DNA of 64,000 bases from an uncultured Pirellulales bacterium (GCA_964601355.1 CAZRNB010000001.1:825-64824); one strand, 5' to 3'; shown: positions 17,906-62,862, counted from the first letter of the stretch. Notes: generated by a model not told the origin, from the sequence alone. Translations and numbers: made by a program.

Positions 17906-18999
17906 AAGACACAAGGCCTATTCTTGGAATCACGATGGGCGATCCTCACGGCATCGGCCCGGAGGTTGCCGTCAAGGCCCTGTCAAATAAGGACGTCTAT
18001 TCGCTTTGCAGGCCCTTGCTTATCGGCGATGCCAATGTATTCAAGCAGGCTATTACTTTTACTCGTCCCGGCGTAGCGGGCCGGAGCGGGACAGGTTTGG
18101 AATTGAAAGTCCGGCCGGTGCAAAGTGAGACCGATGCTGATCCTTCGACTTTGCTCAGGACAAGTTTCGAGCCGGGCCAAATCGACGTGCTTCAGCCGCA
18201 AGGCGGCTGTGTCCAAGAACTAAAATACGGAACTATCTCGGCTCAGGCCGGTCAGGCCGCTTTTGCTGCAATTGAAAAGGCAATCGAGCTGGCTCTTGGC
18301 GGAAGGATTGATGCAGTAGTGACAGGCCCGATCAATAAAGAAGCGATACGTTCAGCGGGACATAACTTCCCCGGCCATACCGAGATATTCGCCCATTATA
18401 CGGCTACCAGCGATTACGCAATGCTTCTGATCCATGGCGACCTGAGAGTAGTTCATGTCACAACCCATATTCCTATTCAGCAAGTCAGCCAAGCGATTAA
18501 CCAAGCGCGCATCTTAAAAGTTATTAAGCTGGCGCACGACGCCTGCCAAAAGCTCGGCATAATCCATCCTCGAATCGGCGTAGCAGGATTGAATCCTCAT
18601 GCCGGTGAGGGAGGTTTGTTTGGCCAAGAGGAGCACGAGCACATCGCACCAGCCATCGAAGCGGCCAGATCTATTGGGATCAATGCCGAAGGCCCTATTC
18701 CGCCGGATACGTTATTTCCAAAGGCTATTGGCGGATGGTTCGATGTCTGCGTTGCCATGTATCACGACCAGGGACATATACCCTTAAAAGTGATGGGTTT
18801 TATCTGGGACAAGGAAAATAAGCGATTGTCTTCCGTCAACGGTGTCAATATCACACTGGGACTTCCCATTATAAGAACTTCGGTTGATCATGGCACAGCC
18901 TTCGATATTGCAGGCCGAGGCATTGCCTCGCCGGACAGTATGATAAGCGCGATTACATACGCCGTAATATTGGCGAACTCAAACAAGACACAGGAATGA
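17902..18999 (+). CDS. PdxA-family NAD-dependent phospho-hydroxyacid dehydrogenase/decarboxylase (PdxA2-like)
   Basis: LGITMGDPHGIGPE, VTGPINKEA, GHTE, NPHAGE, MYHDQGHIPLK and RTSVDHGTAFDIAG. Start overlaps the upstream stop (ATGA). Contains a repeat insertion (18064-18175). Confidence 0.9.
   Translation: MKDTRPILGITMGDPHGIGPEVAVKALSNKDVYSLCRPLLIGDANVFKQAITFTRPGVAGRSGTGLELKVRPVQSETDADPSTLLRTSFEPGQIDVLQPQGGCVQELKYGTISAQAGQAAFAAIEKAIELALGGRIDAVVTGPINKEAIRSAGHNFPGHTEIFAHYTATSDYAMLLIHGDLRVVHVTTHIPIQQVSQAINQARILKVIKLAHDACQKLGIIHPRIGVAGLNPHAGEGGLFGQEEHEHIAPAIEAARSIGINAEGPIPPDTLFPKAIGGWFDVCVAMYHDQGHIPLKVMGFIWDKENKRLSSVNGVNITLGLPIIRTSVDHGTAFDIAGRGIASPDSMISAITYAVILANSNKTQE
18064..18175. repeat. in-frame mosaic repeat insertion inside the PdxA-family gene
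   Basis: ccggcgtagcgggccggagcgggacaggtttgg...gatccttcgactttgctcaggacaagtttcgagccggg encodes RPGVAGRSGTGLELKVRPVQSETDADPSTLLRTSFEPG. It shares GGGACAGGTTTG with the dapF insert and CCTTCGACTT(T/C)GCTCAGGAC with 13185-13204. Confidence 0.65.
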
Positions 19000-23154: not shown

Positions 23155-23228
23155 GATCGATACTCGATGCTTTGATGCTCTCCACAGGACACCTTTCGGC
23201 GGGCGAGTATCGAATATCCAGGATCGAG
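23155..23228. repeat. hairpin element: 7-mer arms (TCGATAC/GAGTATC type) around the 22-nt core, between convergent clpX and the L,D-transpeptidase gene
   Basis: gatcgatactcgatgctttgatgct-CTCCACAGGACACCTTTCGGCG-ggcgagtatcgaatatccaggatcgag, where tcgatactcg pairs with cgagtatcga. Likely a bidirectional terminator. Confidence 0.7.
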
Positions 23229-24308
23229 TTAATCTACGACTCTGACCTGCGAATGAACCGGCACTAACATATTATAAAGGAGTATTGCATCACCATTATG
23301 CAGACGAATACAACCTCTGGATTCGGCAGCACCAATCGTATCCGGCTCTTTTGTGCCGTGAATACCAAAGCCGGTTCGGTCCCTGGCTGGTCCTTCCACG
23401 CCTTGCAGCTCAATCCATCTTGAGCCTAAGGGATAATCCGGATCGGTAGGCTTATATACCCGATGTGTATCAGGGTCTGTCCAAATGGGCTTTTCCATTT
23501 TTCCATCTTTTTTCACACGCCAGAGCCCTAACGGCGTTTCCTTGCCCGGCTTGCCAAGCCCCACGGGGAAGCTACGAATGTAAGTATTCTGCAGATATAA
23601 ATCCATTGTAAAAGTCGAACGATTTACCTTAGCATTGAAAGGGCCATTAATGGCCTTTATAGTCTGTCCGACCTGTAGTGCCTGCGGACTGCTGATATTG
23701 TTAATCTGCATTAAAATCTCATAAGGCACTTTATACCGCTCACCAATTATTCTTAGCTCATCACCCTGTTTGATTCTATAACTGCTGCAAATTTTATCAT
23801 CCGGAAAAAGACTTTTGCTGAAGAGCCAGCGCTCTGAGAGACCGGTTAGCTGCCCTTTAATAAATTCTCGCTGCCTGGCGTCACGGCATATTATTAGCGC
23901 ATCATTCAACCTGTCGCGTGCCTCTATAACCAAGCTGGGCTGACTGTTGATCAGCGCCATAGCCTCGCGAATAATCTCGGCGACCTTAGGATCCGATTGA
24001 ATCGCTGATTTCGATAAAAGACTTACCACATTAGGCTCAAGCCTGGATCCTGCCGCCAAGGTCGCAACAGACTGTGGCGTTTTGATGCCTAAATCAGGCT
24101 CAGGCAAACTCTTAGCCACGGCTTTTTCATTTCCCTCGGCCACGCTCTCCACAGGACGCCTGTCGGCGGGGGCAGATTTGCCGAAAGGACCGAGACCGTA
24201 AATCACGGCAATTATCGCAACAATGATAAGAAGAGCTAAAATGATGTATATTCCATTTGTGCTCAGGCTTATCCGTCTGCCAGGCAATGGGAAAGGAAAA
24301 CGAGCCAT
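23229..24308 (-). CDS. L,D-transpeptidase (YkuD) with LysM domain, membrane-anchored
   Basis: LysM: YRIKQGDELRIIGERYKVPYEILMQINNISSPQALQVGQTIK. YkuD: GFGIHGT...SRGCIRL. The ATG at 24308 has an AAGGAG RBS; the ORF-track start at 24335 is less likely. Confidence 0.85.
   Translation of the reverse strand: MARFPFPLPGRRISLSTNGIYIILALLIIVAIIAVIYGLGPFGKSAPADRRPVESVAEGNEKAVAKSLPEPDLGIKTPQSVATLAAGSRLEPNVVSLLSKSAIQSDPKVAEIIREAMALINSQPSLVIEARDRLNDALIICRDARQREFIKGQLTGLSERWLFSKSLFPDDKICSSYRIKQGDELRIIGERYKVPYEILMQINNISSPQALQVGQTIKAINGPFNAKVNRSTFTMDLYLQNTYIRSFPVGLGKPGKETPLGLWRVKKDGKMEKPIWTDPDTHRVYKPTDPDYPLGSRWIELQGVEGPARDRTGFGIHGTKEPDTIGAAESRGCIRLHNGDAILLYNMLVPVHSQVRVVD
24147..24168. repeat. diverged copy of the 22-nt core inside the L,D-transpeptidase linker
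   Basis: ctccacaggacGcctGtcggcg has 2 differences from the copy at 23180-23201. It encodes ADRRPVES. Confidence 0.55.
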
Positions 24309-27431: not shown

Positions 27432-27514
27432 GAATTTGAATTAAGAATTGAGAATGTAGAATTTAGAATTAAACTTTTCCCTTTTCTCAATTCTCAATTC
27501 TAACTTCTAAATTC
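27432..27514. repeat. hairpin element, family A (AGAATTG/TAGAATT 7-mer arms)
   Basis: gaatttgaattaagaattgagaatgtagaatttagaatt-loop-tctcaattctcaattctaacttctaaattc followed by a T-run. 3' of ilvE. Related copies at 44293-44376 and 54013-54068. Confidence 0.75.
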
Positions 27515-27538
27515 TTTTTTTGCCTGATATTCAGATTT

Positions 27539-30020: not shown

Positions 30021-30085
30021 GAGTAGGATTCGGGGGTCAGGGGTCGGGAGTCGGCAAAAACCTGACCCCTGATCCCTGATCCCTT
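30021..30085. repeat. hairpin element, family C, full copy
   Basis: gagtaggattcgggggtcaggggtcgggagtcgg-caaaaac-ctgacccctgatccctgatccc. Nearly identical to the copy inside lysS at 34347-34417. Confidence 0.85.
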
Positions 30086-31528: not shown

Positions 31529-31541
31529 ATCTCAAAGTTTA

Positions 31542-31600
31542 GTTCATTGTTATTAGTTCATAGTTCATCGTCAATAAACAACGAACTATGAACAATGAAC
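31542..31600. repeat. hairpin element, family B (GTTCATN 7-mer arms)
   Basis: gttcattgttattagttcatagttcatcg-tcaataaaca-acgaactatgaacaatgaac. Related copies at 38344-38406 and 53882-53923. Confidence 0.75.
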
Positions 31601-32978: not shown

Positions 32979-34564
32979 TCTTTAAAAGGTTTCAGAAGTG
33001 GAAACAATACGACATCACGAATACTCAAAGCGCCGGTCAAGACCATAACCAATCTGTCAATTCCGATACCCAATCCACCTGCCGGCGGCATACCATACTT
33101 CAGCGCCGTTATATAGTCCTGGTCCATTTTGGTTAGTGATTCTTCCTGGCCGCGAAGCTGCGTAAGAAAATTCTCATATTGTTCCGCAGGGTCATTCAAC
33201 TCAGTATATGCATTCGCCAGCTCCATCTGGGCGACGAACAATTCAAATCGCTCGGCAAATCTTCCGTCATCCTTTTTACGTCTGGCTAAAGGACACAATA
33301 CGGCCGGATAATCAATCACAAACGTCGGGGCAATGAGATGCTCCTCAACGGTGGTCTCAAATACCTCATTGGTAACTACCGCGTCATCCAAAACATCCTC
33401 TTCTATACCGAGCGATTTTGCTTTTATTCTGATAGCTTGTATATCATCAATATTACAGCCGCTGTATTGCTTTAGAAGGTCCGCGTATCGGGCTCGCCGC
33501 CAGGGCCGCGTGAAATCCACAGCCATTTCGCCGAACATCACCCCATTAGAAATTTCTCCCTGAGAGGTAATCGCCTTCTTTTCGTTATTTCCAACGGGGT
33601 GAATCTGTTTGGCCGCGCTAAGTTTTTCCGCGCATGCGGAGATAGCATCCTCAGCCAATTCCATCATCACATTGTAATCAGCGTACGCTTGATACGCTTC
33701 GAGCATCGTAAATTCCGGATTGTGGTATCTGCTGATTCCTTCGTTGCGGAAGCTGCGATTTATCTCGAAGACCTTTTCCATCCCGCCCACCAGCAGTCTC
33801 TTGAGAAACAGCTCCGGCGAAATCCGCAGGAATAAATCCATATCAAGACTATTATGGTGCGTTATGAAAGGCTTTGCCGCGGCTCCGCCGGCTATGGTCT
33901 GCATCATCGGCGTCTCGACTTCCAGAAAACCCTTCGATACAAGGAGCTGGCGAATCGCAGCAATGACGTCGCTGCGTTTTTTAAACCGCTCCAGCACCTC
34001 AGGATTAGCCCACAGGTCAACGTATCTCTGCCGGTAGCGCAGGTCAATATCCGCCAGACCGTGAAACTTTTCCGGCGGCGGATACAAACACTTGCTCAAA
34101 AGTGTAAGGCGGTCAACCCAAATGGTTATCTCTCCCGTTTGGGTCCTGCCCAATTGACCGGCAGCACCGATTATATCACCAAGCTCAAGCAGCTTGGCAA
34201 GCTGCCAATCGTTTGCATTGGTTCCAATCAGACCCTTGCTCAAGCCGACCTGGATGGTTCCGCTGCTGTCACGCAGAGTAATAAATATCAGCTTGCCAAT
34301 ATCCCTCAGCAGCACAATCCTGCCTGCACAATTGGCACGCCCCGATGAGTAGGATTCGGGGGTCAGGGGTCGGGGGTCGGCAAAAACCTGACCCCTGAAC
34401 CCTGATCCCTGACCCCTTGCCGGGTCTTTGAATCTGCGCTTTACATCTTCAGCCGGCTCCGTATCCTCATATCTGCCGCCGTACGGCTCAATACCAAGCT
34501 GCTTAATTTGGTTCAGCTTTTCCTGTCTTTGTCGTTCAAATTTATCTTGTTTTGTATCTTGCAT
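32975..34564 (-). CDS. lysS: lysine--tRNA ligase (class II)
   Basis: RYRQRYVDL, EVETPMMQ..GGAAAKPF, FRNEGIS..HNPEFTMLE and GGLGIGIDRLVM. Contains a repeat insertion at 34347-34417. Confidence 0.95.
   Translation of the reverse strand: MQDTKQDKFERQRQEKLNQIKQLGIEPYGGRYEDTEPAEDVKRRFKDPARGQGSGFRGQVFADPRPLTPESYSSGRANCAGRIVLLRDIGKLIFITLRDSSGTIQVGLSKGLIGTNANDWQLAKLLELGDIIGAAGQLGRTQTGEITIWVDRLTLLSKCLYPPPEKFHGLADIDLRYRQRYVDLWANPEVLERFKKRSDVIAAIRQLLVSKGFLEVETPMMQTIAGGAAAKPFITHHNSLDMDLFLRISPELFLKRLLVGGMEKVFEINRSFRNEGISRYHNPEFTMLEAYQAYADYNVMMELAEDAISACAEKLSAAKQIHPVGNNEKKAITSQGEISNGVMFGEMAVDFTRPWRRARYADLLKQYSGCNIDDIQAIRIKAKSLGIEEDVLDDAVVTNEVFETTVEEHLIAPTFVIDYPAVLCPLARRKKDDGRFAERFELFVAQMELANAYTELNDPAEQYENFLTQLRGQEESLTKMDQDYITALKYGMPPAGGLGIGIDRLVMVLTGALSIRDVVLFPLLKPFKD
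34347..34417. repeat. family C hairpin element inserted in-frame in lysS
   Basis: gagtaggattcgggggtcaggggtcgggggtcggcaaaaacctgacccctgaaccctgatccctgacccct encodes ARGQGSGFRGQVFADPRPLTPESYS, N-terminal to the anticodon-binding OB fold. Confidence 0.85.
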
Positions 34565-37283
34565 CTTGTAATAGGAGACAGGAGACAGGAGACAGAAGAC
34601 AGGAGTTAATATTCTGTATTCTGTATTCTGTATTCTGTATTCTTTCCTGAGCCAGTTTAGTTTTAATAACCAGGACGGCTACCGCCAGCTCCGGGTCCGC
34701 CGCTAAGGTCTCTTCGATAGTATGTCTTTTCGGCATCTCTCTGCCGGCGCCACGGTCGGCTTGAGATCCGTTAGAAGATTCTTTTCTGCCGGTTAGAGTA
34801 TTCTGATCCTCCCTTCGGGTCTGAGCCTCAGGGTCGAAGACTAACACGGTTTTTCTAACGGGTTGAACAAGCACGTCATTATCGCGCTGAATATCGAGCA
34901 TTTTCTTGAGATCATCACTTGTCAGCACTATTTCAACGTTTGGCCCGACACCCCAATCTTTGCCGCCCTGTTTTTCGACCTCATCTCGGCTTTTAACTCT
35001 TTGACCGGAAGGTAAATGATAGTATGCCATCGTATATTTTAGCTGTGCTCCGCCGCCTGGATATTCGGTTATTCCCTGTACGCTGCCTTTGCCATGCGTT
35101 CTTTCGCCGACCAGGACCGCCCGGTTGTGCATCTGGTCTGCTAAAGCTCCCGCTACAATTTCAGAAGCGCTGGCCGAGTCGGAATTAATCAATATGACCA
35201 GCGGATAATCCGGATGCGTCCCCTTGGCGTGCGCCGCTTTATAACTCGGCGTCCTGCCGAAGCCGGGTTGTGTTCTGACTATCAATCCCTCTTTTATGAA
35301 ATGGTCGGCCACATCCACGGCACTTTCCAGCAGACCCCCGGAATTGAATCGCAGGTCCAGGATAAGCCCTTTCAATCCTTCCTGCTCTAATTGACTTAAT
35401 ACCTTATCAAGCTCCACGGGAGCATCTGCGGAAAAGCTGGTAAGACGAACATAGCCGACTTTGTTCTGCTGGTCGATCATATACAGCCAGTCGCCTGTTC
35501 CAGTCCTTTGCCAGCCCCGAACCGATGAAACAGTTATCCTGGCTCTGGTAATGGTAATATCCTGAGTTTTTTCTTCGCCCGGCCGCTTAATCGTCAGCGT
35601 CACCTTCGTGCCTTTGGGGCCGGTGATTTTATGAACAGCGCATATAAGACTCATATCTTGCGCATCAAGGCCGTCCACCGCCGTTATCACGTCACCGGCG
35701 TCAAGACCGGCTTTATATGCCGGTGTATCCGGCAATAAGCTGGACACCGTCAACAGCCCTTTGGGTTTGGAAATCTCTATCCCAATGCCCGTGAACTCAT
35801 TGGTCATTATCTTCTCGAAATCCTGCACTTGCCTGGGCCATACTATAACCGTATAAGGATCAAGCGAAGATAATGCCGCTTCTGCAAACTGGGAAATCAG
35901 CACCTGCCGAGGCAGCTGAATCGTTACGGCGTTCAGTGACATTATTCTCTCAAAAATTTCTATGAACTTATCTTTAGTGAGCCCGGCAGACAAAGTAAGG
36001 CCCTGTATATGACCTCCGGTCGAGCTCGATGCGGCTTCAGCCTCGGACAATTCGTTAAGGCGGACAAGAGCAGCTGAGAAGGCGGCAAGCTCATTGGCAT
36101 CCACCCCCCGCAGCACTGTGGAGGATTGATTGGGCGATGAGCCTTCCACTGTGGGATTACTATCTTCACCCTCCGACATGGCCAAAGGTAACTGCCGACC
36201 GGCTTGAAAATATGTATTTACAATCTCGGCCAACAGCTCACAACGTTTGATAGCATCGGCAGTCATCCGGCTATAATCGATAGTATTGACGTAATGCGTA
36301 TCGAGCGCCTCTATCGTCCGAATGAACATCTCTTTTTTAATCCCCTGGAAACGTTCTTCGCGTGTTTCACAGGGACTGTCCTGAAGAGAAGCAATAATGC
36401 CGGCTTTATCCAAAAGCTGATCTGCATAATCTGAATAAGCCTCGTTGTTTGGATCAATTGCCTGCAGCCAAAAGTAGCAGGTTGTGTATGCTTCAAGATA
36501 TTTACCCTGAAGCTCAAGACCGGATGTCCTATCTATGGCCTTTTGAAAAACCTGTTTAACATAAGAATTAGATAATAGCTCCGCTTTCTGCGCATCATCT
36601 GCCAGCTCACCTGCCGCGGTGATAACAGAAAGCATTTTAATTATATCATTTACGTCGTTTACGTCGTTTGCGGAGGATTTAGAGGCCGAATCGTTGACGT
36701 GGATTCCTGCTAAGGGGGGTTCGTCGCTGCTGTGCATCTTGGCCTGAAGTTTCTCCAGCTCAGTTAACTGCTGCTGGTAAGCTGATTGCCGAGCTGATCG
36801 ACGCTGTCGATCTAAAGTCTGATACGCATCAATAATCTCCAACAACTGACGAATAGTTCCACTAAATCCACCTGCATTGCCCTGGTCGATTTGTTTCAGC
36901 AGCTCGCCGGCAAAATCGAATTTACCCTTGTAAATCAGTTCGCACGCTGCGCGGATAACGCTTAACGGCGATTCCGACACTTCATTAGCGTTTGGTTCCG
37001 CCGGGAGGGGCTTTGGAACTTCAGCAGGCGTTAGTTTATCCTGAAGTATGCTGTCAGCTGATACGTCAGCAGCAGGTGTTTCCAGGGCAATTAGCGGAGT
37101 TGAAAATCTATGCCCAAGAGATAGGATACCACGTGGAGTATCCCACAGTGGCCAGCAGAAGAACACCAAAAGAAAAGAGCATAGAAGCAGCAGGAACAAA
37201 GTGACTTTTACACTTTTAGCTCGATTGTCCTGCCAAAATAATTTTTTTAATCTTAACAACTGCAATGAACCGCTCCTTACCAA
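34542..37283 (-). CDS. S41-family C-terminal processing peptidase with PDZ domain and a long N-terminal extension
   Basis: PDZ (GIGIEISK...PAYKAGLDAGDVITAVDG) and S41 core (LILDLRFNSGGLL, INSDSASASEIVAGAL, GERTHGKGSVQ). TTG start, so uncertain. The C-terminal 30 aa are read through the family F repeat. Confidence 0.85.
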   Translation of the reverse strand: MVRSGSLQLLRLKKLFWQDNRAKSVKVTLFLLLLCSFLLVFFCWPLWDTPRGILSLGHRFSTPLIALETPAADVSADSILQDKLTPAEVPKPLPAEPNANEVSESPLSVIRAACELIYKGKFDFAGELLKQIDQGNAGGFSGTIRQLLEIIDAYQTLDRQRRSARQSAYQQQLTELEKLQAKMHSSDEPPLAGIHVNDSASKSSANDVNDVNDIIKMLSVITAAGELADDAQKAELLSNSYVKQVFQKAIDRTSGLELQGKYLEAYTTCYFWLQAIDPNNEAYSDYADQLLDKAGIIASLQDSPCETREERFQGIKKEMFIRTIEALDTHYVNTIDYSRMTADAIKRCELLAEIVNTYFQAGRQLPLAMSEGEDSNPTVEGSSPNQSSTVLRGVDANELAAFSAALVRLNELSEAEAASSSTGGHIQGLTLSAGLTKDKFIEIFERIMSLNAVTIQLPRQVLISQFAEAALSSLDPYTVIVWPRQVQDFEKIMTNEFTGIGIEISKPKGLLTVSSLLPDTPAYKAGLDAGDVITAVDGLDAQDMSLICAVHKITGPKGTKVTLTIKRPGEEKTQDITITRARITVSSVRGWQRTGTGDWLYMIDQQNKVGYVRLTSFSADAPVELDKVLSQLEQEGLKGLILDLRFNSGGLLESAVDVADHFIKEGLIVRTQPGFGRTPSYKAAHAKGTHPDYPLVILINSDSASASEIVAGALADQMHNRAVLVGERTHGKGSVQGITEYPGGGAQLKYTMAYYHLPSGQRVKSRDEVEKQGGKDWGVGPNVEIVLTSDDLKKMLDIQRDNDVLVQPVRKTVLVFDPEAQTRREDQNTLTGRKESSNGSQADRGAGREMPKRHTIEETLAADPELAVAVLVIKTKLAQERIQNTEYRIQNINSCLLSPVSCLLLQDARYKTR
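34574..34642. repeat. hairpin element, family F (GGAGACA / TTCTGTA 7-mer arms)
   Basis: ggagacaggagacaggagacagaagacaggag-ttaat-attctgtattctgtattctgtattctgtattc. Arms pair with G-T wobbles. Related long copy at 62724-62826. Confidence 0.8.
37124..37151. repeat. short copy of the GGATACC...GTATCC element inside the S41 peptidase ORF
   Basis: ggataccacgtggagtatcccacagtgg encodes WDTPRGIL in the N-terminal membrane-proximal region. Confidence 0.6.
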
Positions 37284-37290
37284 GGTATCT

Positions 37291-37363
37291 GGTAATTGGT
37301 GAGTGGTTAATTGGTTAAATGGTTAATTGGTTAATTAACCACTCACCGCTCACCATTTAACCA
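37291..37363. repeat. hairpin element, family E (GGTTAAT 7-8-mer arms)
   Basis: ggtaattggtgagtggttaattggttaaatggttaattggttaatt|aaccactcaccgctcaccatttaacc, 3' of fba. Confidence 0.75.
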
Positions 37364-38343: not shown

Positions 38344-38406
38344 CGTTCATTGTTATGAGTTCATAGTTCATCGATGAACAATGAACAGCGGACAATGAAC
38401 AACGAA
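38344..38406. repeat. hairpin element, family B
   Basis: gttcattgttatgagttcatagttcatcg|atgaacaatgaacagcggacaatgaacaacgaac, between the LptD-like gene and fba. Confidence 0.75.
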
Positions 38407-38411
38407 CATAG

Positions 38412-43156: not shown

Positions 43157-43176
43157 ATACGTTGTGCGTCTTATAA

Positions 43177-43263
43177 GTGCCTAAAGTGAGCTAAAGTGTC
43201 TAAAGTGAACTAAAGTTGTTGTTCTTAACTTTAGGCACTTTTAACTTTAGTCACTTTAGTCAC
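43177..43263. repeat. hairpin element, family D (CTAAAGTG 9-10-mer arms)
   Basis: gtgcctaaagtgagctaaagtgtctaaagtgaactaaagt-loop-aactttaggcacttttaactttagtcactttagtcac, 3' of pilT. Second copy at 60681-60789. Confidence 0.8.
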
Positions 43264-54522: not shown

Positions 54523-54825
54523 ATGAGAAATAATAAAATACCTCCACTGCATCCTGGAGAGATTCTTCTTGAAGAATTCTTAAAGCCTCTGAATATAAGC
54601 CAAAATCAGCTTGGTCGAGACTTAGGAGTGTCTGCTCGAAGAATAAACGAGATTATTCATGGCAAAAGGAGCATAACAGCAGATACGGCTCTCCGTTTAG
54701 CCCGGTATTTTGGCAATTCGCCGCAGTTTTGGCTCGGCCTTCAAATAGATTACGATTTGGACGTGGAGACAGACAGGCTCTCACATCGAATAAAAAAAGA
54801 AGTGAAAAAATTAGCCTATGCGTAG
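54523..54825 (+). CDS. higA: HigA-type antitoxin (XRE-family HTH)
   Basis: HPGEILLEEFLKPLNISQNQLGRDLGVSARRINEIIHGKRSITADTALRLARYFGNSPQFWLGLQ. Confidence 0.9.
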   Translation: MRNNKIPPLHPGEILLEEFLKPLNISQNQLGRDLGVSARRINEIIHGKRSITADTALRLARYFGNSPQFWLGLQIDYDLDVETDRLSHRIKKEVKKLAYA

Positions 54826-55051
54826 GGTTCCCGCAAGGTGGGGTCCCAATCAAGAGATGCTATCACTTTTCAACCGAAAGGTAGGCAGTAAGAATGCCTG
54901 CACGACCCAAAGACTTATAGCTTTTCAACCTATTTGGAAGTTCATGCTTAAATCTCAAGCTTCCGCAAAATTACGTTATGTTTACAGAAATACGGGGTTT
55001 TATATAATACAATGTAGGTTTCCAGATAGGACCATCCGTTTGGATTGATTT

Positions 55052-55612
55052 ATGGATGAATCTCTGAAAGACTTACTCTTTAACTGTGGTTTGCAGAGTC
55101 CAGGTTCGTGGCTTATGAGCGCTTTATGACTCAAGCGTGCGGCTGAGGAGATTGACTATTGGAAGCATTATAAGGCTGATATAAATAGCCCGGAAGGCGA
55201 TTTTCAATTCATGATCCCCGTCTACAAGTTACTTTTAGGGCTCTCTTTCGAGAACTTGCTGAAAGGGATTGCAGTAGAACAACGTGGTTCAGGAGGTTCG
55301 CTTGGCAAGATCGAAAAAGATTTGACAACTCACCATATGGAGGACTTGCTAGATCTTGCCGACTTATCTGCGGTTTATATTTCAAATGAAGAAAGGTCTC
55401 TGCTGATTGATTTGGAGCAGTATGTAGTTTGGGCAGGTCGGTACCCACTCCCAAAGAAATCTGCAGACCTTTTTGCCAAAATGGACTCTTCCAATGACAA
55501 CAAAAATAGATTGGGACTTTGGGATCGCCTATTTACTCATCTAAAAAGTATCGGTTGGGTCACTAAGATGGACGGATCTAAATTATTCACTGGTAAACCT
55601 GTCAGTGAATAG
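55052..55612 (+). pseudogene. hypothetical (possibly HEPN-like) gene interrupted by an in-frame TGA, or a shorter 133-aa ORF starting at 55211
   Basis: The ATG at 55052 opens a frame that hits TGA at 55127-55129, then continues in the same frame through the ATG at 55211 to 55612. The segment YKLLLGLSFENLLKGIAV resembles the helix-1 'aiELlLKa' pattern of HEPN-type proteins (weak). Confidence 0.4.
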
Positions 55613-55627: not shown

Positions 55628-57283
55628 TCACCTGTTTCGTGTTTTAAGATAATCAAGAACCACTAATTTGTCGCTGAAATTGAATTTCTGGGTTCCGATT
55701 ATTTGGTAGTTTTCATGGCCTTTGCCGGCGATAAGCACAATATCATCCTTGCCGGCAGTTCTTATGGCTAACTCGATGGCCTTTCTTCTATCCGGCTCAA
55801 TTATTTTCGTCGCTCGTCGCTCGTCGCTCGTCGCTCGTAATTCCGTATGCGGTACCGCAGGCCCTTTTTCAAAACCTGTAACTATTTCATTAATGATGCC
55901 TCCGGGTTTTTCTGTTCGCGGATTGTCACTGGTGACGATTACAATGTCTGCTAATTCCTCGGCGACTTTGGCCATTCGAGGACGTTTGGTTCTGTCCCTG
56001 TCGCCGCCGCAGCCAAAAACGACTATCAATCTGCCTTTGCACAAAGGTTTCAGTGTCGTCAGGACGTTTTTCAAGGCATCATCAGTATGGGCATAATCAA
56101 TTAACACGTGACTCGTCCATTCTCCGTAGCACTGCGAAGGATGAATCGCTTGTCGCTCGTCGCTCGCTGCTCGTTCCCTGACCCCCGACCCCCGACCCCC
56201 GACTCCTGAACAATCGACTTTTTCCAATCGGCCAGGCACGCCCTGCAGGACCGAAAGGCCTGCTGCTATCGTTTCCAAATCCATGCCGGATGCAAGGCAC
56301 AATCCCGCTGCTGCAAGGTGATTGCTGACATTATGAAGACCCAATAAAGGAGTCTTTACGAGTGACGAGTGACGAGTGACGAGTGACGATTCGTCTGCAT
56401 ACTCTAAAGTGAAAACCGTTCCATTTATGTCCGTCGATTCGGTGTGAGCAGTAATATCCGCTGGTTCATCGATAGCATACCATAAGATTTTGGCCTTTGT
56501 ATTTTTGGCAATATGCTCAGCCTGGGGTGATTGCTTGTTCAATACCGCAACCGCATCAGGCAAAAGGGCGGAAAAAAGTTTCGTCTTGGCGGCCAAATAA
56601 TCTTCTGTGGTCTTGTGATAGTCCAGGTGGTCGCCGGTGAGGTTGGTAAAAGCTGCTGCTGTAAAATTTATCCCAGCCAGGCGATTCTGTGACAGGGCAT
56701 GGCTGCTGGCCTCGATGACCATATATTCGCAGCCGGCTTTAATCATTTCCTGCTGGATGCGTGCAATTTCCAGGCAATCCGGTGTTGTCATTGAAGCCTG
56801 GCAGATGCTACGGCCTGTGTCGTATTCAACGGTGCCGATTAGGCCGCACTTTTTGCCGGCCGTTTGTATTATCGACCGAACCAAATAAGCCGTAGTAGTT
56901 TTGCCGTTTGTGCCGGTGACGGCGAGATTGATTAGTAGCGAAGCCGGATTACCAGCCCTTGCCTGTGCCAGAAGGGCTGCCGCTTCTGCGGAATTTTTCA
57001 CGTCGATAATCTCGATACTCGATGCTTGATGCTGGATACCGTCACCACAGGGGTGACGGCTAAACATCGTCCATCGTCCGTCGTCTCTCGTCCCTCGTTT
57101 TTTCTTCTGGCAAACTATGTATTTTGCGCCTTTGGCGATGGCCTGGTCGATGAAGTCATGGCCGTCACAGTTGGCGCCTTTGATAGCTACAAATATATCG
57201 CCGTCTTTGACGAGCCGTGAATCAATGCAAATATTTGGGTGATCGACGGAAGATGCCAACGCTAATAATTCGTTGAATGTCAT
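55628..57283 (-). CDS. murE: UDP-N-acetylmuramoyl-L-alanyl-D-glutamate--2,6-diaminopimelate ligase
   Basis: VTGTNGKTTT, EASSHAL, FTNLTGDHLDYH, IDYAHTDDAL, FGCGGDRDRTKRP, DNPRTE and AGKGHE. The ORF is intact despite four repeat insertions. Confidence 0.95.
   Translation of the reverse strand: MTFNELLALASSVDHPNICIDSRLVKDGDIFVAIKGANCDGHDFIDQAIAKGAKYIVCQKKKRGTRDDGRWTMFSRHPCGDGIQHQASSIEIIDVKNSAEAAALLAQARAGNPASLLINLAVTGTNGKTTTAYLVRSIIQTAGKKCGLIGTVEYDTGRSICQASMTTPDCLEIARIQQEMIKAGCEYMVIEASSHALSQNRLAGINFTAAAFTNLTGDHLDYHKTTEDYLAAKTKLFSALLPDAVAVLNKQSPQAEHIAKNTKAKILWYAIDEPADITAHTESTDINGTVFTLEYADESSLVTRHSSLVKTPLLGLHNVSNHLAAAGLCLASGMDLETIAAGLSVLQGVPGRLEKVDCSGVGGRGSGVRERAASDERQAIHPSQCYGEWTSHVLIDYAHTDDALKNVLTTLKPLCKGRLIVVFGCGGDRDRTKRPRMAKVAEELADIVIVTSDNPRTEKPGGIINEIVTGFEKGPAVPHTELRATSDERRATKIIEPDRRKAIELAIRTAGKDDIVLIAGKGHENYQIIGTQKFNFSDKLVVLDYLKTRNR
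55805..55864. repeat. murE insertion 4: (TCGTCGC)x4 plus the palindrome GCGGTACCGC
   Basis: Tandem 7-mers at 55807-55834, then taattccgtatgcggtaccgcagg. Encodes GPAVPHTELRATSDERRATK between VTGFEK and IIEPDRR. Confidence 0.85.
56109..56216. repeat. murE insertion 3: mosaic of a core-like module, degenerate TCGTCGC 7-mers and family C GACCCCC units
   Basis: ctccgtagcactgcgaaggatgaatcgc-ttgtcgctcgtcgctcgctgctcgttcc-ctgacccccgacccccgacccccgactcc encodes CSGVGGRGSGVRERAASDERQAIHPSQCYGEWTSH, between GRLEKVD and VLIDYAHT. Confidence 0.85.
56360..56387. repeat. murE insertion 2: (GAGTGAC)x4 perfect tandem 7-mers
   Basis: Four exact copies encode SSLVTRHSSLV, before the conserved PLLGLHNVSN. Confidence 0.85.
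57012..57100. repeat. murE insertion 1: TCGATAC/GATGCTG 7-mers, perfect hairpin CCGTCACC-ACAG-GGGTGACGG, CATCGTC 7-mers
   Basis: Encodes KRGTRDDGRWTMFSRHPCGDGIQHQASSIE between IVCQKK and IIDVKNSAEA. Confidence 0.85.
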
Positions 57284-58194: not shown

Positions 58195-60666
58195 TTATTT
58201 TCCCGGCAGATCGAAAGTTTTATACGTTGTATTATCAACGTCGTCTTTGACTTTGACGGTGAGGATATGCTCACCGGCTTTCAAATCTTCTACTACAATT
58301 GTGAAGCTCTCATCTGTAGTATCATAAACCAGGTCGTCAGGAATGGAGCCTTTCCATTCTGCATTGCTGTCAACGGTGTATTGCACCTCGCCGATTATGC
58401 TTAGCTCGTCATGCACCAGCAGCTTTAATGTTATTGTGCTGTCGGTTTTTGTAATAGAGTTTTCACCGATGACCGGCCCGGTATTATCGATTATCACCGG
58501 ATCGCTTATTCTGCTGTCCGTCAGTTTGGTTGCCGCATTATTGCTTCTTTCATCGCTTGCGGTTACTCTGAGCTCATACCGGCCATCTTCAACGGTCCTT
58601 CCGTCCCAGTCGAAGCTATCTGCTTCGTGCTCGTCTTCAAGCTCAATCCAGTTAGTTCTGCCGATTTTTCTAAGGTCTATCTTGTAGATCAGCTTGTCAC
58701 TGTTGTCGTCCTTTGCCTTATAGGTAATTTTGAATCCTCCGGGAAGGATTTTATTGGTAGGCTCAACCCGGCTGACATTGACGGATTCAACCTTCGGAGC
58801 CAGATTCGGCACGGTGCTGGCAACTGCAATTTCCCTTATAATGGGAGTTTTAAGACCGTCTTCGCTTTTCAGGATAAGTTTATATTGGCAGAATCTGCCG
58901 ATTGGACAAGACAGTTGTACCGGCTCATTTATCTCTATCGGCTCAGTCCAATCCGAAAAAGTTGGGTCGTTCACGTCTTCAACGTTACCGCTGCGGGATG
59001 CTATCAAAACCTTGCATCCCTGCGGGATGTCGGCCTCAATTTGCAGCTTGCCCCACCTGGCAGGCTGACCGGCGTCAATCAGGTCGGAAATGTAGGTACC
59101 ATCCGCAGCAAAAGTTTTGTTTAGCTTTATCAGCTTTGGAGGATTTGCGGTCCCAAGATACACAACACCATCGGCCACGGCTATCGATGTTATCTGTGAT
59201 GCCTGCTCGTCCTCATAAACAATTGCCTGCTGCTCCGTCGCCGGGTCGATGGTAAAAAGTTGAGCGGAGTTTCCCGTTCCTACAAGCAGCTTTGAATCTT
59301 GTTCGGCCAAGCAGAAGAAAACCGCTGTCTCGCTGAATACATCGGTTACAAAACCCTCTTTGTTTATTTTGTGTATAACGCTGGTTTTATCAGATTTGGC
59401 TGCCTGGCGGGGTGGCATCTTTTTGCCGGCTGATTCATCAACTGCTCGTCTTTTTATATTTGCTATTTGCAGCTTACGTCCCGATACATCGGGATTGACG
59501 GAGTCTTCCCGCTTTTGCGAGGGCACCTCAGGCCGACCCGCCACAAACGATTCCGCTGCAAAACTTGTTTCAGCCTGGACGGCCTGGGCCGATGTTGCCG
59601 CCGCGTATAAATATGTATCTGCAGAAGTCAAAGTCGATGCCGACAGCAGCGCTGTAATCTCAGGCTGCTCACTGTCATACAAAACCGTCGCTGTTTTAGT
59701 GCGTGGATTTATTTTATATACCAGTCCTCGGCCGTCGCTGCCGGCATAAATTGAACCATCTTTTGCAGTGGCTAACGAAAGGATGTTTTTGTCTCGACTG
59801 GTATAAATAATTTGTGCCTCTCTGCCCAGAGAGTCGAGCTGATACACATTGCCCTTCGGCCCCGTACCTAAATAAATATTACCTACATTATCGGTAGCTA
59901 TGGCGAAGATATATCTGGTGTCATCCGCAGCGCCGAAAGGTGTCCTGCGGAGCGGCGGGTCTGATCCGGTCCAGGCTTTCAGCCTGGTCGTCCTGGGCTC
60001 AAAAATCGTTTCCAGCTTGTTTCCTTCAAGCCGACACAGTCTGCATTCTTTACCACTTATACCTGCCAGCAGCCTGCCAGAAACATCGGTAGCCATCGCA
60101 AAAATATGCTCATTTGACAGATGCCGTTCTTCCCCCTCGGCTGCACTCGGGACAGGCTTAACCTCGTTTGCATCGTTGATCTCGTCTGTACTTTCAATCT
60201 CCGCAGGACACCTTTCGGTGCTGTCGGTGGCAGGCTCATTATCCTGCTCGGCATCCGGTTCTTCCCCCCGGAAGGGGTCCTGTGGACTGGGAGGATCTTC
60301 TATTGTGGGATTTTTCTCGGGCTTTTGATCACTTTGCAGAGGATATACCTTTGTCAATTGCCCGATGCTGTATTTATAAATGCCTCCGTTGGGACTTGTG
60401 CCGATGTAAATTATGCCGCCGCTTATAACGATGCTGTTTATCGACCAGACATTCTCGAGCTTCTCAACCAGAACTTGCGAGGCATATCCAAGCTGAATAA
60501 TCCCCCGAAGGTCAATGACAATGTTTTCGGTTTTGCCCTTTAGTAAATCAGCACCGCTTTTGTGGTGTATAATTTTTGTTGTGACCGCTCGGCTCTGAGT
60601 AACAAAAAACATAGGTAATATGCAGCTTGCAAGTGCACAAATCACAAAAATTCTTTTATGTGTCAT
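58195..60666 (-). CDS. secreted repeat protein (beta-propeller-like repeats plus C-terminal Ig-like region)
   Basis: Signal peptide (FVICALASCILPMFFV). A recurring motif (I/V)Y(L/I/A)G(T/S)xxxGx(V/I/L)(Y/F/I)K(Y/I/L) appears at least 5 times. An acidic disordered linker is present, and the C-terminus is beta-rich. Confidence 0.65.
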   Translation of the reverse strand: MTHKRIFVICALASCILPMFFVTQSRAVTTKIIHHKSGADLLKGKTENIVIDLRGIIQLGYASQVLVEKLENVWSINSIVISGGIIYIGTSPNGGIYKYSIGQLTKVYPLQSDQKPEKNPTIEDPPSPQDPFRGEEPDAEQDNEPATDSTERCPAEIESTDEINDANEVKPVPSAAEGEERHLSNEHIFAMATDVSGRLLAGISGKECRLCRLEGNKLETIFEPRTTRLKAWTGSDPPLRRTPFGAADDTRYIFAIATDNVGNIYLGTGPKGNVYQLDSLGREAQIIYTSRDKNILSLATAKDGSIYAGSDGRGLVYKINPRTKTATVLYDSEQPEITALLSASTLTSADTYLYAAATSAQAVQAETSFAAESFVAGRPEVPSQKREDSVNPDVSGRKLQIANIKRRAVDESAGKKMPPRQAAKSDKTSVIHKINKEGFVTDVFSETAVFFCLAEQDSKLLVGTGNSAQLFTIDPATEQQAIVYEDEQASQITSIAVADGVVYLGTANPPKLIKLNKTFAADGTYISDLIDAGQPARWGKLQIEADIPQGCKVLIASRSGNVEDVNDPTFSDWTEPIEINEPVQLSCPIGRFCQYKLILKSEDGLKTPIIREIAVASTVPNLAPKVESVNVSRVEPTNKILPGGFKITYKAKDDNSDKLIYKIDLRKIGRTNWIELEDEHEADSFDWDGRTVEDGRYELRVTASDERSNNAATKLTDSRISDPVIIDNTGPVIGENSITKTDSTITLKLLVHDELSIIGEVQYTVDSNAEWKGSIPDDLVYDTTDESFTIVVEDLKAGEHILTVKVKDDVDNTTYKTFDLPGK
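59931..59987. repeat. 22-nt core (59931-59952, reverse orientation) plus hairpin CCAGGCT-TTC-AGCCTGG, in-frame
   Basis: Encodes ...KAWTGSDPPLRRTPFGAADD... in the propeller-like protein. Confidence 0.75.
60199..60220. repeat. 22-nt core copy (one substitution) in the acidic linker of the same protein
   Basis: CTCCGCAGGACACCTTTCGGTG, read as TERCPAE. Confidence 0.75.
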
Positions 60667-60680
60667 AATAACTCCCAGAA

Positions 60681-60789
60681 GTGCCTAAAATTTAGAGTGA
60701 CTAAAGTGCCTAAAGTTACGAAATATAATCTTAGCTTGCTTTAGGCACTTTAGCTCACTTTAGGCACTTTAGCTCACTTTAGGCACTTT
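60681..60789. repeat. hairpin element, family D, long copy
   Basis: gtgcctaaaatttagagtgactaaagtgcctaaagt-loop-ctttaggcactttagctcactttaggcactttagctcactttaggcacttta, between the S55-like gene and the propeller-like gene. Confidence 0.8.
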
Positions 60790-60810
60790 ATCTAATTGGA
60801 TTCTGTCACA

Positions 60811-62862
60811 CTATTTCTCTACCGTTATACGCATACTTTTTCTATCGGCTACGATTGTGCCTGTTCTTACACTTTTTTCGAGCCATTGTGGATAGGGCTG
60901 GATTCTTAATGCTCTTATATCATCCTGCATGACAAGCGTTTTTGTCGCCGGCAAATCAGGAAGCTCAGACCTTTCTACTGCTATGCCGCTGGGCGGTAAA
61001 ACTAAAAGGCAGTACAATTTATCTCTATTGATGCTTAAAACATCGTTCAATGCCTCAATCAGACTCGTCATATCATACGCGATAAATCTATACGGGACGG
61101 TTTTCCGCAGATGCTGTTCATATTCGGACGAGCCTAATACAATCAATTCGTATTTCCCGGGATTGAGACCTTCGGGTATTTTCAGGCTGAACTGATATTT
61201 TTTCTTTTCTGAGAGGTACGATTCGAGAACGACGTCCACCTGGATTTGATGCCCAGGCTTAATACTCGAATCAGACAAATCGACCGACCATATATAAGAG
61301 GCGATGTTTTTCGGCAGGATGCGGATATCGAAATCAAGTGATGTTATATCAACTTCCTCAAAGGGATTGTTCATTAGCAGAAGCACGGAACCTTTACTTT
61401 CGGCTATCATTTCAGCCGTAGATAGTCCTGTGGATATATTTTCAAAATTGATCCCTATTTGTTGGGATTTGTCTTTCAGGCCGATACTTACCTTGTATTC
61501 AATCGTATGGTCCGGCGGAAAGCTGCCGAGGGACATAACTGCTCCAGACACGGTTGCATGGAGCAGCTCAGGAGTAAGCAATCGATTGTTGGCGAGCCGG
61601 CAGTTAAAACTTGCATCCCGTCGAAATCGGCTTTGCTCCCGTCCAGACAATCGGCCTGGCTGCTCTTGTGTGTTAAAACGGCTCACTTTTATCGTCAGCG
61701 GTATCATCTGCGGCGTTGCACCGATTTGCCCGAAAATCGCTGTTGGTTCGTCGGTTGTCAAGGCGCCGACTATTTCCATGCTGCTACCGAGCTTAAAAGA
61801 ACGAGCCAGATTTGATACAATGGTATGCACTTGGCCGGTGGCCATTGGCAAATCTATCGCTCCATAACCAAGCAGGCTGTGGCCAAAACCATAGACCTTA
61901 TCTCCCACAATCTCAGTGACGGTCCCAAGCACAGTCGATGTTATATCACCATCGACTAACGGCACCGTAAGAACTGCACCCGGGGTTAGCTGCACCTTTT
62001 GAGTATTGTTGGCATCCGAATTGCCTCCAATGCCCGAAACAGCCATAAGCCCGTAAGGCTCAAGCAAGGCCTCGAATTGTTTACAGGCATCAGGCGGCAG
62101 GCCGGAAATAATTAACGGGCACGGCAGCCATCCCAGCGCCGAAAGGTGTCCTGCGGAGCTGGATGCTGGATGCTGGATGCTGGATGCTGAATGCTCGACG
62201 AGAATCGAGCGTCGAGAATTGAGCATCGAGTTAATTTCAGCAAAATCGATCGGCTTGGAAAAATCGAGCGCAAATCCCATTTTGTTGGATTTCAAATCGT
62301 TGGCACTGCCTACTTTGAGCATTTCTTTAATCGGCGTAACGCCGTAAAGCGGGTCTTTGCTGAGTGTCCAGGCGAAAGACATCGCCCCGGCCAGCCGGCC
62401 TTCAATATAGACCGGCGAGCCGCTGCACCCGGCTACGGGACCTGTGTAAATAAAACGCTTATCTGTGCCTTGAACCAAAATCGCATCTCGACCCGGCTCA
62501 ATATTGTGCACCACACTTATAACATCCAAATCGAACTTCTCGATTTTGGTGCCGCTGTAACAGGTAAGACAATATGCCTTCATCCCAGGAGTAATCTCAT
62601 CAATGCTTATATATTTGGCTGGATCCCAAAGGTCTTTTGCAGAGCTTTTGCTGGGTGGGGCCGTATCTGGCGCAGCATTTTTTCCCACCTGCTGAGCGGA
62701 TTCACAAAGAGAGTCAGCTAAAAGCAGAAGACAGAAGACAAAAGCCGGAAAACAGAGGACAGAGGACGGAGAACGGAAATTCTGCCTTCTGTCTTCCGTC
62801 TTCTGTCTTCTATATTCTGTATTCTTTTTTTGCCCTTTTGCCCTTGTTTTTATTATGAACAT
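60811..62862 (-). CDS. secreted SpoIVB/S55-like serine peptidase-domain protein
   Basis: GCSGSPVYIEGRLAGAMSFAW (GxSGSP serine motif) and GTVTEIVGDKVYGFGHSLLGYG resemble peptidase S55. The N-terminal signal peptide is encoded by the family F repeat. Confidence 0.55.
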   Translation of the reverse strand: MFIIKTRAKGQKKNTEYRRQKTEDRRQNFRSPSSVLCFPAFVFCLLLLADSLCESAQQVGKNAAPDTAPPSKSSAKDLWDPAKYISIDEITPGMKAYCLTCYSGTKIEKFDLDVISVVHNIEPGRDAILVQGTDKRFIYTGPVAGCSGSPVYIEGRLAGAMSFAWTLSKDPLYGVTPIKEMLKVGSANDLKSNKMGFALDFSKPIDFAEINSMLNSRRSILVEHSASSIQHPASSSAGHLSALGWLPCPLIISGLPPDACKQFEALLEPYGLMAVSGIGGNSDANNTQKVQLTPGAVLTVPLVDGDITSTVLGTVTEIVGDKVYGFGHSLLGYGAIDLPMATGQVHTIVSNLARSFKLGSSMEIVGALTTDEPTAIFGQIGATPQMIPLTIKVSRFNTQEQPGRLSGREQSRFRRDASFNCRLANNRLLTPELLHATVSGAVMSLGSFPPDHTIEYKVSIGLKDKSQQIGINFENISTGLSTAEMIAESKGSVLLLMNNPFEEVDITSLDFDIRILPKNIASYIWSVDLSDSSIKPGHQIQVDVVLESYLSEKKKYQFSLKIPEGLNPGKYELIVLGSSEYEQHLRKTVPYRFIAYDMTSLIEALNDVLSINRDKLYCLLVLPPSGIAVERSELPDLPATKTLVMQDDIRALRIQPYPQWLEKSVRTGTIVADRKSMRITVEK
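62137..62230. repeat. 22-nt core followed by about ten 7-mers (CTGGATG x3, degenerating to CTCGACG/AGAATCG/AGCATCG), in-frame
   Basis: CGCCGAAAGGTGTCCTGCGGAG-ctggatgctggatgctggatgctgaatgctcgacgagaatcgagcgtcgagaattgagcatcgag encodes SRRSILVEHSASSIQHPASSSAGHLSALG. Confidence 0.85.
62724..62826. repeat. long family F hairpin inside the 5' end of the S55-like ORF
   Basis: Left arm gcagaagacagaagacaaaagccggaaaacagaggacagaggacggagaacggaa, right arm ttctgccttctgtcttccgtcttctgtcttctatattctgtattc. gaagacagaagac and gtcttctgtcttc are perfectly complementary. Confidence 0.85.

Follow-up and report, generated by a model that had tools for sequence, protein, structure and literature searches.

Tandem repeats with a unit of seven nucleotides have been described in several bacterial lineages. 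Heptameric simple sequence repeats (SSRs) are over-represented in many bacteria, and polymerase slippage with a 7-nt footprint was proposed to produce them (Mrazek et al. 2007, as cited in PMC4692102 and PMC4679880). Geobacter metallireducens contains elements of four tandem heptanucleotides (Gmet_H4##, consensus GGACCGG), some of them inside genes, as well as a second set of five-heptamer sites that were drawn as hairpins (Aklujkar et al. 2009, PMC2700814). Heptamer arrays are also found in Xanthomonas (GGGAATC) and Nostoc (GGGGAYT) (Rehm et al. 2015, PMC4692102), and arrays of 2-6 copies of the direct repeat TAACTGA are abundant in Beggiatoaceae and cyanobacteria, where stop codons in the unit limit the placement of arrays relative to coding sequence (MacGregor 2015, PMC4679880). 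Small repeats of other kinds include the Rickettsia palindromic elements (RPEs), which comprise ten families of ~150 bp, each with a conserved peptide, according to a later summary (Ogata 2000/2002, in PMC10969869), and the GTAG-tagged REPs, which one account presents as a superfamily (PMC3733652). Here, we analysed a stretch of 64,000 nucleotides from an uncultured Pirellulales bacterium (GCA_964601355.1, CAZRNB010000001.1:825-64824; hereafter the window, with positions counted from its first letter), in which the cell wall gene murE carries heptanucleotide repeats at four in-frame sites.

Both features of long-unit SSRs, a head-to-tail excess of 7-nt units and whole-unit polymorphism between close relatives, were found at this locus. 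The arrays gain and lose whole 7-nt units, and only changes by 3n units are common in intact murE genes. The repertoire of unit families at the murE sites is limited and is shared with the intergenic hairpins. We consider it likely that the murE segments are resident copies of the small repeats of this lineage, namely heptanucleotide arrays of ~4-5 units and mini-palindromes of 21-30 nt. A literature search yielded no report of heptanucleotide repeats in Planctomycetes, and none of the papers retrieved on Sedimentisphaerales named repeats in title or abstract.

Repeat DNA at four sites of murE

The murE coding sequence (55628-57283, minus strand) is an unbroken reading frame of 551 aa, assigned to a UDP-MurNAc-L-Ala-D-Glu:meso-DAP ligase by open reading frame (ORF), Pfam and PDB matches. 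Its product consists of three domains (Pfam Mur_ligase, E = 3.9e-11; Mur_ligase_M, E = 2.4e-48; Mur_ligase_C, E = 8.8e-29), and solved MurE structures in the PDB align along its whole length (best E = 5e-92). The TGTNGKT P-loop, the DYAHTDDAL block and the DNPR motif, which we take to be a mark of meso-DAP-adding enzymes, are all in the translation and are invariant across 21 orthologs. An earlier, sequence-only reading of this DNA had called the enzyme intact, and the unbroken ORF, the three Mur-ligase domains and the invariant catalytic motifs bear this out. That reading had also allowed for a second, clean murE copy; within the 64 kb window, where this search was made, there is no other Mur ligase.

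Approximately 70 extra residues, or 13% of the protein, lie at four sites. All four are gaps in alignments to solved MurE and variable columns of the ortholog alignment. Tandem Repeats Finder (TRF) detected six period-7 arrays inside the gene, two of which had 100% matches and ~4.6 copies each. Each murE element named in the sequence-only reading was recovered, exactly or shifted by a few bases, and its description of in-frame repeat DNA between conserved blocks agrees with the TRF arrays and the gaps against solved MurE.

Site 1 (57011-57106, on the minus strand like the other three; residues 60-91, KKKRGTRDDGRWTMFSRHPCGDGIQHQASSIE) was defined by TRF, RNA folding and a gap against PDB structures. 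It is a two-armed imperfect hairpin of 96 nt, with a GACGRNN array as arm 1 (57065-57098, 4.9 copies) and a CATCRAG/TATCGAG array as arm 2 (57011-57039, 4.1 copies). At its centre (57040-57060) is a perfect hairpin with an 8-bp stem, CCGTCACC-ACAGG-GGTGACGG. The RNA fold of site 1 has an energy of -29.5 kcal/mol (z -2.15 against shuffles), and its outgroup state is 9-12 residues. Site 2 (56357-56395; residues 297-309, DESSLVTRHSSLV), defined by TRF and codon alignments, measures 39 nt, 21 nt (3 units) above a 6-residue base state, and contains a perfect (GTCACTC)x4.4 array; TRF placed the array at 56358-56389 with the unit ACGAGTG (4.6 copies, 100% matches).

Site 3 (56105-56215; residues 357-393), found by TRF and a module search, occupies the linker that joins GRLEKV to LIDYAHT, where a GGGGTCR array (56176-56203; TRF unit CCCCGAC, 4.0 copies), a CGAGCGA-type array (56146-56174, 4.1 copies) and the hairpin module TCATCCTTCGCAGT/GCTACGGAGAATGGA (56117-56143) form a mosaic. 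Site 4 (55805-55867; residues 473-493, KGPAVPHTELRATSDERRATK), defined by TRF, sequence and DNA comparison, joins a perfect (CGAGCGA)x4.6 array (55807-55838; TRF unit TCGTCGC, 100% matches) to a 30-nt non-repeat part, within which lies the palindrome GCGGTACCGC (55849-55858). Sites 2-4 are one-armed direct arrays that fold no better than shuffles (z -0.16 to +1.3), and the label 'palindrome' was therefore dropped for them; it holds for site 1 and for small internal modules. Thus, of the 7-nt repeats and palindromes named in the sequence-only reading, the repeats stand at all four sites, and only site 1 is a palindrome as a whole.

An AlphaFold2 (AF2) model of the product was of moderate quality (mean pLDDT 66.9), with low-confidence stretches outside the inserts too, and was used solely for the order of secondary-structure elements. 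In this model all four sites fall between such elements, and pLDDT is low at sites 1-3 (below 50 for residues 359-390 of site 3). Strands 55-59 and 91-95 flank site 1; site 2 lies in a beta-hairpin between strands 290-294 and 308-312, site 3 in the linker of domains 2 and 3 between strands 353-356 and 392-396, and site 4 between helix 460-468 and strand 493-495. As modelled, the inserts would occupy permissive places: a domain-1 loop, a domain-2 beta-hairpin, the domain 2-3 linker and a domain-3 loop.

Changes by whole units among orthologs

The 120 best homologs of the murE product (481-599 aa, 62-78% identical to it) served as comparison set; their source names are uncultured Sedimentisphaerales, Phycisphaerae or Planctomycetota, and by these names the host of the window would be a planctomycete of the Sedimentisphaerales. 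These orthologs are strongly conserved outside the inserts, and their length differences map, in length and content, to the same four sites as in murE. At each of the four sites, different states were found between MurE proteins with 88-98% identity over shared columns. The sequence-only reading had considered that distant orthologs might contain homologous peptides, which did not apply, as the distant orthologs and the solved structures lack them.

The clearest length series was found at site 2, which is 6, 13, 20 or 27 residues long in 46, 36, 3 and 4 proteins, respectively. The step of 7 residues corresponds to 21 nt, or three heptamers, and parallel series of 8/15 and 11/18 residues follow the same step. 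In codon alignments, relatives without the insert read GGCCAATCGTCCATCGTCAAA, which already amounts to 1.7 copies of the heptamer, and the expanded alleles are longer by exactly 21 nt in the same register as the outgroup sequence. Within each allele the units are homogenised, to GTCCCTC in one ortholog locus (L082), GTCAATC in four others (L081, L085, L087, L092) and GTCACTC in the window. Other lineages have AACTCAA (L091), GAGTCAC (L097) or CTCGATA-like units (L090) at this site. In these alignments, site 2 is a case of concerted evolution in place and not an insertion of foreign DNA. The word 'insertion' in the sequence-only reading thus fails for site 2, an in-situ +21-nt expansion of a native proto-repeat.

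Steps of +21 nt were also observed at site 1, from L084 to L093 and from L087 to L091. At the same site, a 24-nt module, CCTGAGCGAAGTCGAAGG, divides the CAGAAGA array in L085 and does not in L087. Site 3 of L081 and L087 contains the mosaic of the window plus a 21-nt hairpin, absent in the window, that is nested in the loop of another hairpin, and the ortholog P0149 has a 10-residue module within an SSIEYRA array. Such small modules are dispersed in the window and at other loci. In these comparisons, the small hairpin modules behave like insertions, with precise presence or absence inside arrays or other hairpins.

Among orthologs, at least four unrelated kinds of small repeat occupy the site 3 linker, including a double hairpin (L090, L168). 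In L095, it holds a GTAG-tagged REP-like hairpin, GTAGGGTGGGC...GCCCCACCCTAC, that is translated in-frame; this GRVGFSPPS...GGASPTL class of hairpin in the MurE linker is found in L095 and at least nine further orthologs. L168 and L170, whose murE genes are ~96% identical, carry wholly different site 3 cassettes (columns ~1018-1130 of alignment A2), a heptamer mosaic in one and a double hairpin encoding QQRPHVSRGAKYLAPQFIAGS in the other, which suggests cassette replacement or recombination between strains. Site 4 has states of 7, 11 and 21 aa and longer, and its GPAIPH.ELR part is conserved in 53/120 orthologs.

A change in unit number other than 3n should shift the reading frame, as the sequence-only reading had pointed out, and a search among members of 90%-identity clusters found two such alleles. 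Compared with ~99% identical L170, the site 3 array of L169 has one CGAGCGA unit fewer (-7 nt). The site 2 array of L168 has two GTCAATY units fewer than that of L170 (-14 nt). Both murE genes are frameshifted exactly at the unit loss, next to full-length neighbouring genes. The break in L169 is located in the interdomain linker, and a second ORF starts with GTG at LIDYAHT, overlapping the stop of the first; it is conceivable that this sequence encodes a two-piece enzyme with coupled translation. Two further frameshift candidates were discarded: L171, because a 1-nt indel together with other broken genes on the contig suggests long-read error, and L172, because its 8-nt deletion lies beside and not within the array. 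At all 47 loci defined by tblastn, murE is in a single frame. Non-3n slips appear to occur, giving frameshifted or split alleles that are rare.

Heptamer arrays and hairpins across the window

We next considered how these repeats are distributed outside murE. An autocorrelation scan of the window found 20 period-7 arrays, compared with 0-1 in shuffled sequence and 0-2 for each of the periods 4-6 and 8-13, so the heptamer arrays cannot be attributed to chance. Ten hits at period 14 stem from these period-7 arrays, detected at twice their period. The arrays outside murE mostly occur as adjacent pairs with near-reverse-complement units that form hairpins in spacers of co-directional genes (for example at 27432-27515, 30026-30084, 31539-31600 and 38345-38408), and the RNA folds of these hairpins reach z-scores of -2.7 to -7.0. 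All 16 arrays inside ORFs are free of stops on the coding strand, and 10/14 intergenic arrays have stops on at least one strand.

The sequence-only reading had noticed the unit types of murE in intergenic hairpins, and shared families were indeed traced to 23155, 30026, 34356, 43311 and 62158; its proviso that the units might not recur elsewhere did not apply. The GGGGTCR family is found at 30026, at 34356 and in murE site 3; CTCGATR/CTGGATG at 23155, 43311 and 62158 and in site 1; and GACGANN in all four murE sites. Three families have their members outside the gene, CAGAAGA/AGGAGAC (34573, 62725), GAATTNN (27432, 44305, 54016) and GTTCATW (31539, 38345). The CAGAAGA family also fills murE site 1 in the orthologs L087, L091 and L085.

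Other genes in the window carry the same material in-frame. The dapF insert (1859-1915, minus strand; TRF and module search) is an (AACTCAA) array that the 23-nt hairpin module CCTGTCCCGAGCGGAGTCGAGGG interrupts, and solved DapF in the PDB has a 13-residue gap at that point. The insert near the N-terminus of lysS (34356-34417, minus strand) is a two-armed GGGGTCR/CCTGAYC hairpin (z -3.4) and a near-copy of the intergenic element at 30026-30084 (z -3.9), which separates an ABC ATPase gene from an FtsX-like permease gene; solved lysyl-tRNA synthetase (PDB) has a 17-residue gap in the aligned stretch. The module CCYGAGCGRAGTCGARGG has four copies in the window against 0.05 expected, one of them in pdxA, and a 23-24-nt form of it interrupts the arrays in dapF and in L085. 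Judged by the families found in dapF and lysS, the repeat phenomenon belongs to the lineage and its genome and not to murE alone.

The remaining hairpins are mostly intergenic. Downstream of clpX is a hairpin of the CTCGATR family (23155-23230). The hairpin at 27432-27515 has AT-rich arms (GAATTNA/TTCTNAA) with stop codons on both strands, and that at 31539-31600 has the arms TAGTTCA/CAATGAA, with a second family member at 38345-38408. Arms of AGGAGAC/TATTCTG form a hairpin (34573-34643) at the 3' end of an S41 peptidase ORF, just upstream of the lysS start. Two hairpins on the minus strand lie inside a 683-aa ORF (60811-62862): one with arms GCTGGAT/CGAGMAT of the CTCGATR/CTGGATG family (62158-62230, z -2.7), and a long one in the 5' part of the ORF whose arms, CAGAAGA/TTCTGTC, are exact reverse complements (62725-62825, z -7.0). 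The window gave no Rfam match at gathering thresholds and no match in a tRNA scan. Its 64 kb, otherwise ordinary housekeeping chromosome, also contain no transposase, RAYT or reverse transcriptase.

To place these numbers in a wider context, we compared loci of related genomes. Heptamer arrays reach 0.2-1.7 per kb in most loci of the closest relatives and are close to zero in more distant Phycisphaerae and in other phyla. The number of arrays in murE correlates with the array density of the flanks (rho 0.51, p 0.005, n = 29); for total MurE length there is no such correlation (rho 0.24, p 0.21). The idea that sites within one genome homogenise each other had no general support; ATSDERR, RRQKTED and ESRATSH showed no association. 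NTQYAIR occurs at both sites 1 and 4 in 7/11 (Fisher p 2e-4, a value not corrected for phylogeny).

Several further observations concern small repeats of the window. A second hairpin family (43175-43263 and 60680-60790, both intergenic) has arms of ~9.5/19-nt tandem units with AGTGCCTAAAGT, a sequence with 10 matches against 0.28 expected. One of the two period-8 arrays of the scan, TAATTGGT x5.6 (37293-37336), lies in the spacer of S41 peptidase and class-II aldolase genes. In pdxA (17902-18999, plus strand), a CCTGAGCAAAGTCGAAGG module at 18142-18159, on the opposite strand, is read in-frame as ...DPSTLLRTSF..., and the Pfam match of PdxA, to a profile of 286 positions, covers 320 residues. 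A nest at 13113-13253, compounded of small palindromes that include an LSEVEG-type module and a GCTCGCTCGAAATGA-type hairpin, has no accepted gene and is overlapped only by an unannotated 153-aa GVG ORF (12845-13306, plus strand). Its translations resemble 'SLRSLEMT / ARNDF' pseudo-peptides, presumably common in metagenomic ORF calls.

Some gene boundaries of the window also attracted attention. At 34542-34643, the S41 peptidase ORF reads through the AGGAGAC/TATTCTG hairpin and shares 23 nt with lysS, which starts at 34564; this hairpin may have lengthened the peptidase at its C-terminus or may mark the true intergenic spacer. The strongest hairpin of the window (62725-62825) falls in the first 50 codons of the 683-aa ORF, which has a weak S55-peptidase match, and the annotated start of this ORF may be wrong, with the hairpin as 5'-UTR. 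The fumarate hydratase ORF (GTG start at 58274) overlaps the 3' end of an 823-aa upstream ORF by 80 nt (58195-58274), and the fumarase start codon is probably further downstream. In the relatives L081-L083, L085 and L086, murE and murF are separated by small cassettes of toxin-antitoxin or nucleotidyltransferase type (HigB/HigA, HicA/HicB, DUF4258, HEPN/NTP_transf). The genes after murE in the window are a HigA-like HTH gene and an unannotated 133-aa ORF (54523-55612), and neither murF nor mraY follows murE within the 64 kb. Insertions thus seem to favour the murE-murF junction, and synteny is broken there in the window.

Origin of the segments and their described counterparts

The account we favour, and hold to be probably correct, is that the murE segments are heptamer microsatellites with nested REP/SDR-like mini-palindromes that derive from a genome-wide pool, change by whole units and are filtered by selection. 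Unit number would change through slipped-strand or hairpin-assisted mispairing during replication or repair, and families may spread between loci by a copy process, be it transposition of hairpin elements or ectopic copying seeded by microhomology. The filter would be purifying selection on murE, passing segments whose sense strand is stop-free, whose net length change is a multiple of 3 units (21 nt = 7 residues) and whose location is a loop or linker. The hydrophilic insert peptides would then be translated passengers with no required function. Over 21 nt, a 7-nt array passes through all three frames, so that an array open in one frame is open in all. It also encodes the same 7-residue peptide from any entry frame, and only total length is therefore constrained.

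Several observations weigh against this account. The murE gene of the window has 5 arrays in 1.65 kb compared with 15 in 62 kb of flanks, and murE and flank arrays number 4 and 1 in L081 and 4 and 0 in L085. A process that is neutral and acts evenly on the genome would not predict such enrichment; the simplest account of it, though not a full explanation, is that tolerant sites have inherited old arrays. Furthermore, ~10 heptad-peptide families recur at different sites, although 1608/2340 cyclic heptamer classes are stop-free; few recurring families among so many permitted classes point to copying from a shared pool and not to random local seeding, and no copying enzyme was found within the 64 kb window. 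Growth from a proto-repeat of 1.4-1.7 units to 4.4 units is impossible by a single simple slip, which leaves the first expansion unexplained. The frameshifted alleles of L168 and L169 are assembly consensus sequences from one ENA study, and translation of the inserts is inferred solely from the conserved frame and the absence of stops.

A second explanation, which we regard as unlikely, is that all four segments are preformed mobile elements, of miniature inverted-repeat transposable element (MITE), RPE or REPIN-like type, moved in trans by a RAYT or an IS200/IS605-type TnpA, with unit-number change as a secondary event. It would explain why element families are common to murE, other genes and intergenic hairpins and why a limited repertoire recurs at different sites. 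Precise presence or absence of small modules, the entirely different site 3 cassettes of the near-identical L168 and L170, and the GTAG-tagged REP-like hairpin at site 3, as in L095, also fit. Conversely, the native proto-repeat of site 2 has grown by exactly 3 units in the outgroup register, three of the four murE segments are not palindromic, and 7-residue length steps with whole-unit deletion alleles are the behaviour of a microsatellite. When compared with MITEs, the window hairpins have inverted arms; for the murE segments, terminal inverted repeats are not evident, target duplications cannot be scored inside repeats, and the 64 kb window contains no transposase.

We give less credence still to a lineage-specific process in 7-nt register, for which a defect in a replication or repair enzyme or a hairpin-copying enzyme would be candidates, that writes and rewrites arrays genome-wide and, in Sedimentisphaerales, has made loops of essential enzymes into mutable cassettes, with whole-unit slips that yield viable frameshifted or split MurE variants such as the two-piece allele of L169. 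If true, it would create heritable, reversible heterogeneity in peptidoglycan synthesis. The canonical cell-division (dcw-cluster) genes are reportedly non-essential in one planctomycete.

It is very improbable that the arrays are themselves selected, be it as reversible frameshift switches (contingency loci) by which MurE is turned off or split, as cis-acting motifs such as sites of a heptamer-binding protein, or as adaptive surface loops. The surplus of arrays in murE over flanks in several genomes speaks for selection, as do the conserved GPAIPH.ELR of site 4 and the two natural frameshift alleles, of which the L169 arrangement would be compatible with coupled translation of a two-piece enzyme. 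However, dapF, lysS and intergenic spacers hold the same repeats, the arrays are short (~4 units) unlike those of typical contingency loci, and the tblastn-defined loci are in-frame without exception. In addition, close relatives with otherwise conserved enzymes have inserts that are freely replaced or missing, and no association with surface or variable functions was seen. Finally, a protein-level feature, an assembly artefact or a decaying pseudogene has nothing in its favour beyond the unusual appearance of the gene and can be set aside as having almost no chance of being correct, as a 7-nt periodicity with 100% unit identity cannot come from selection on protein, the independent JGI, ENA and NCBI assemblies, which also answer the artefact raised in the sequence-only reading, show arrays at these sites too, the ORF is intact with invariant catalytic motifs, and the orthologs are strongly conserved outside the inserts at 62-78% identity.

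The more than 120 orthologs form a natural experiment on the amount of unstructured repeat-encoded peptide that a conserved enzyme can bear and on the places where it can do so. They also illustrate a rule for non-3n units in essential genes, in which the survivors are stop-free in all frames and change in triple-unit steps. For annotation, heptad peptides such as RATSDER, SSIVNRQ, RNTQYAI and RRQKTED, and motifs of the LSEVEG or GFSPPS type, should be read as repeat DNA and not as domains. The long-noted heptamer excess of some bacteria is here tied to a clade with repeat-free sister lineages, in which its cause becomes testable.

Known systems resemble this one in part. RPEs are palindromic and are not microsatellites, whereas the murE segments, with the exception of site 1, are arrays of 28-32 nt that form no palindrome and vary in steps of whole 7-nt units, as the sequence-only reading had suspected when it called the architecture different. 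A long palindrome of ~100-150 bp is not found here either; only the 96-nt site 1 folds above shuffles, and site 2 measures 39 nt. The likeness to RPEs is that selfish repeat DNA resides in-frame in unrelated housekeeping ORFs, is translated and takes fold-compatible positions, at least as the summary presents it (PMC10969869), and in-frame residence at fold-compatible positions was found here in murE, dapF and lysS. RPEs are thus a valid precedent for such residence, as the sequence-only reading had proposed, and neither the sole nor the closest one in view of the heptamer elements of Geobacter. The Gmet_H4 elements are, like those in murE, intragenic and made of four heptamers, a comparison drawn by description only. 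They differ in being a single unit family of a deltaproteobacterium that was read as regulatory, whereas murE has many families in a planctomycete, and in the Geobacter account 3-unit steps, turnover, nested modules and frameshift alleles have no support from comparisons.

The REP, BIME and REPIN elements resemble the intergenic heptamer-armed hairpins in co-directional spacers and the GTAG-tagged hairpin class at site 3 of orthologs; in the window, by contrast, the arms are tandem arrays with family-specific units, copies lie inside ORFs and no RAYT is present. The cyanobacterial SDR elements, reportedly described by Elhai et al. in 2008, are said to be 21-27-nt hairpins nested in heptamer arrays. 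Such nesting, polymorphic between relatives, was found in dapF and L085 (23-24 nt) and in L081 and L087 (21 nt). Heptamer and tetramer tracts at contingency loci of Haemophilus and Moraxella also have a non-3n unit in which a single-unit slip shifts the frame, and alleles of this kind were seen here. The tracts of such loci are long, belong to surface or restriction-modification genes and switch at high frequency, whereas murE is a housekeeping gene with short tracts and nearly all alleles in-frame.

The Xanthomonas GGGAATC and Nostoc GGGGAYT arrays are G-rich like the GGGGTCR family, and inverted pairs of them can form stem-loops (PMC4692102). The cyanobacterial and Xanthomonas heptamers share with ours a lineage-specific over-representation and a length and sequence that vary between close relatives (PMC4692102). 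Likened by description only, they belong to other phyla and are described as mainly intergenic, and in-frame residence in essential enzymes with 21-nt steps is not known from those descriptions. TAACTGA is a single unit with stops in forward orientation that is found mostly upstream of start codons, whereas the window has many units, of which those in coding regions are stop-free. The murE case is therefore not a new category, and represents an unusually well-resolved variant of intragenic heptanucleotide repeats with mini-palindromes. New are the four sites in one essential gene, the 21-nt steps, the concerted evolution of units, the replacement of linker cassettes and the whole-unit frameshift alleles.

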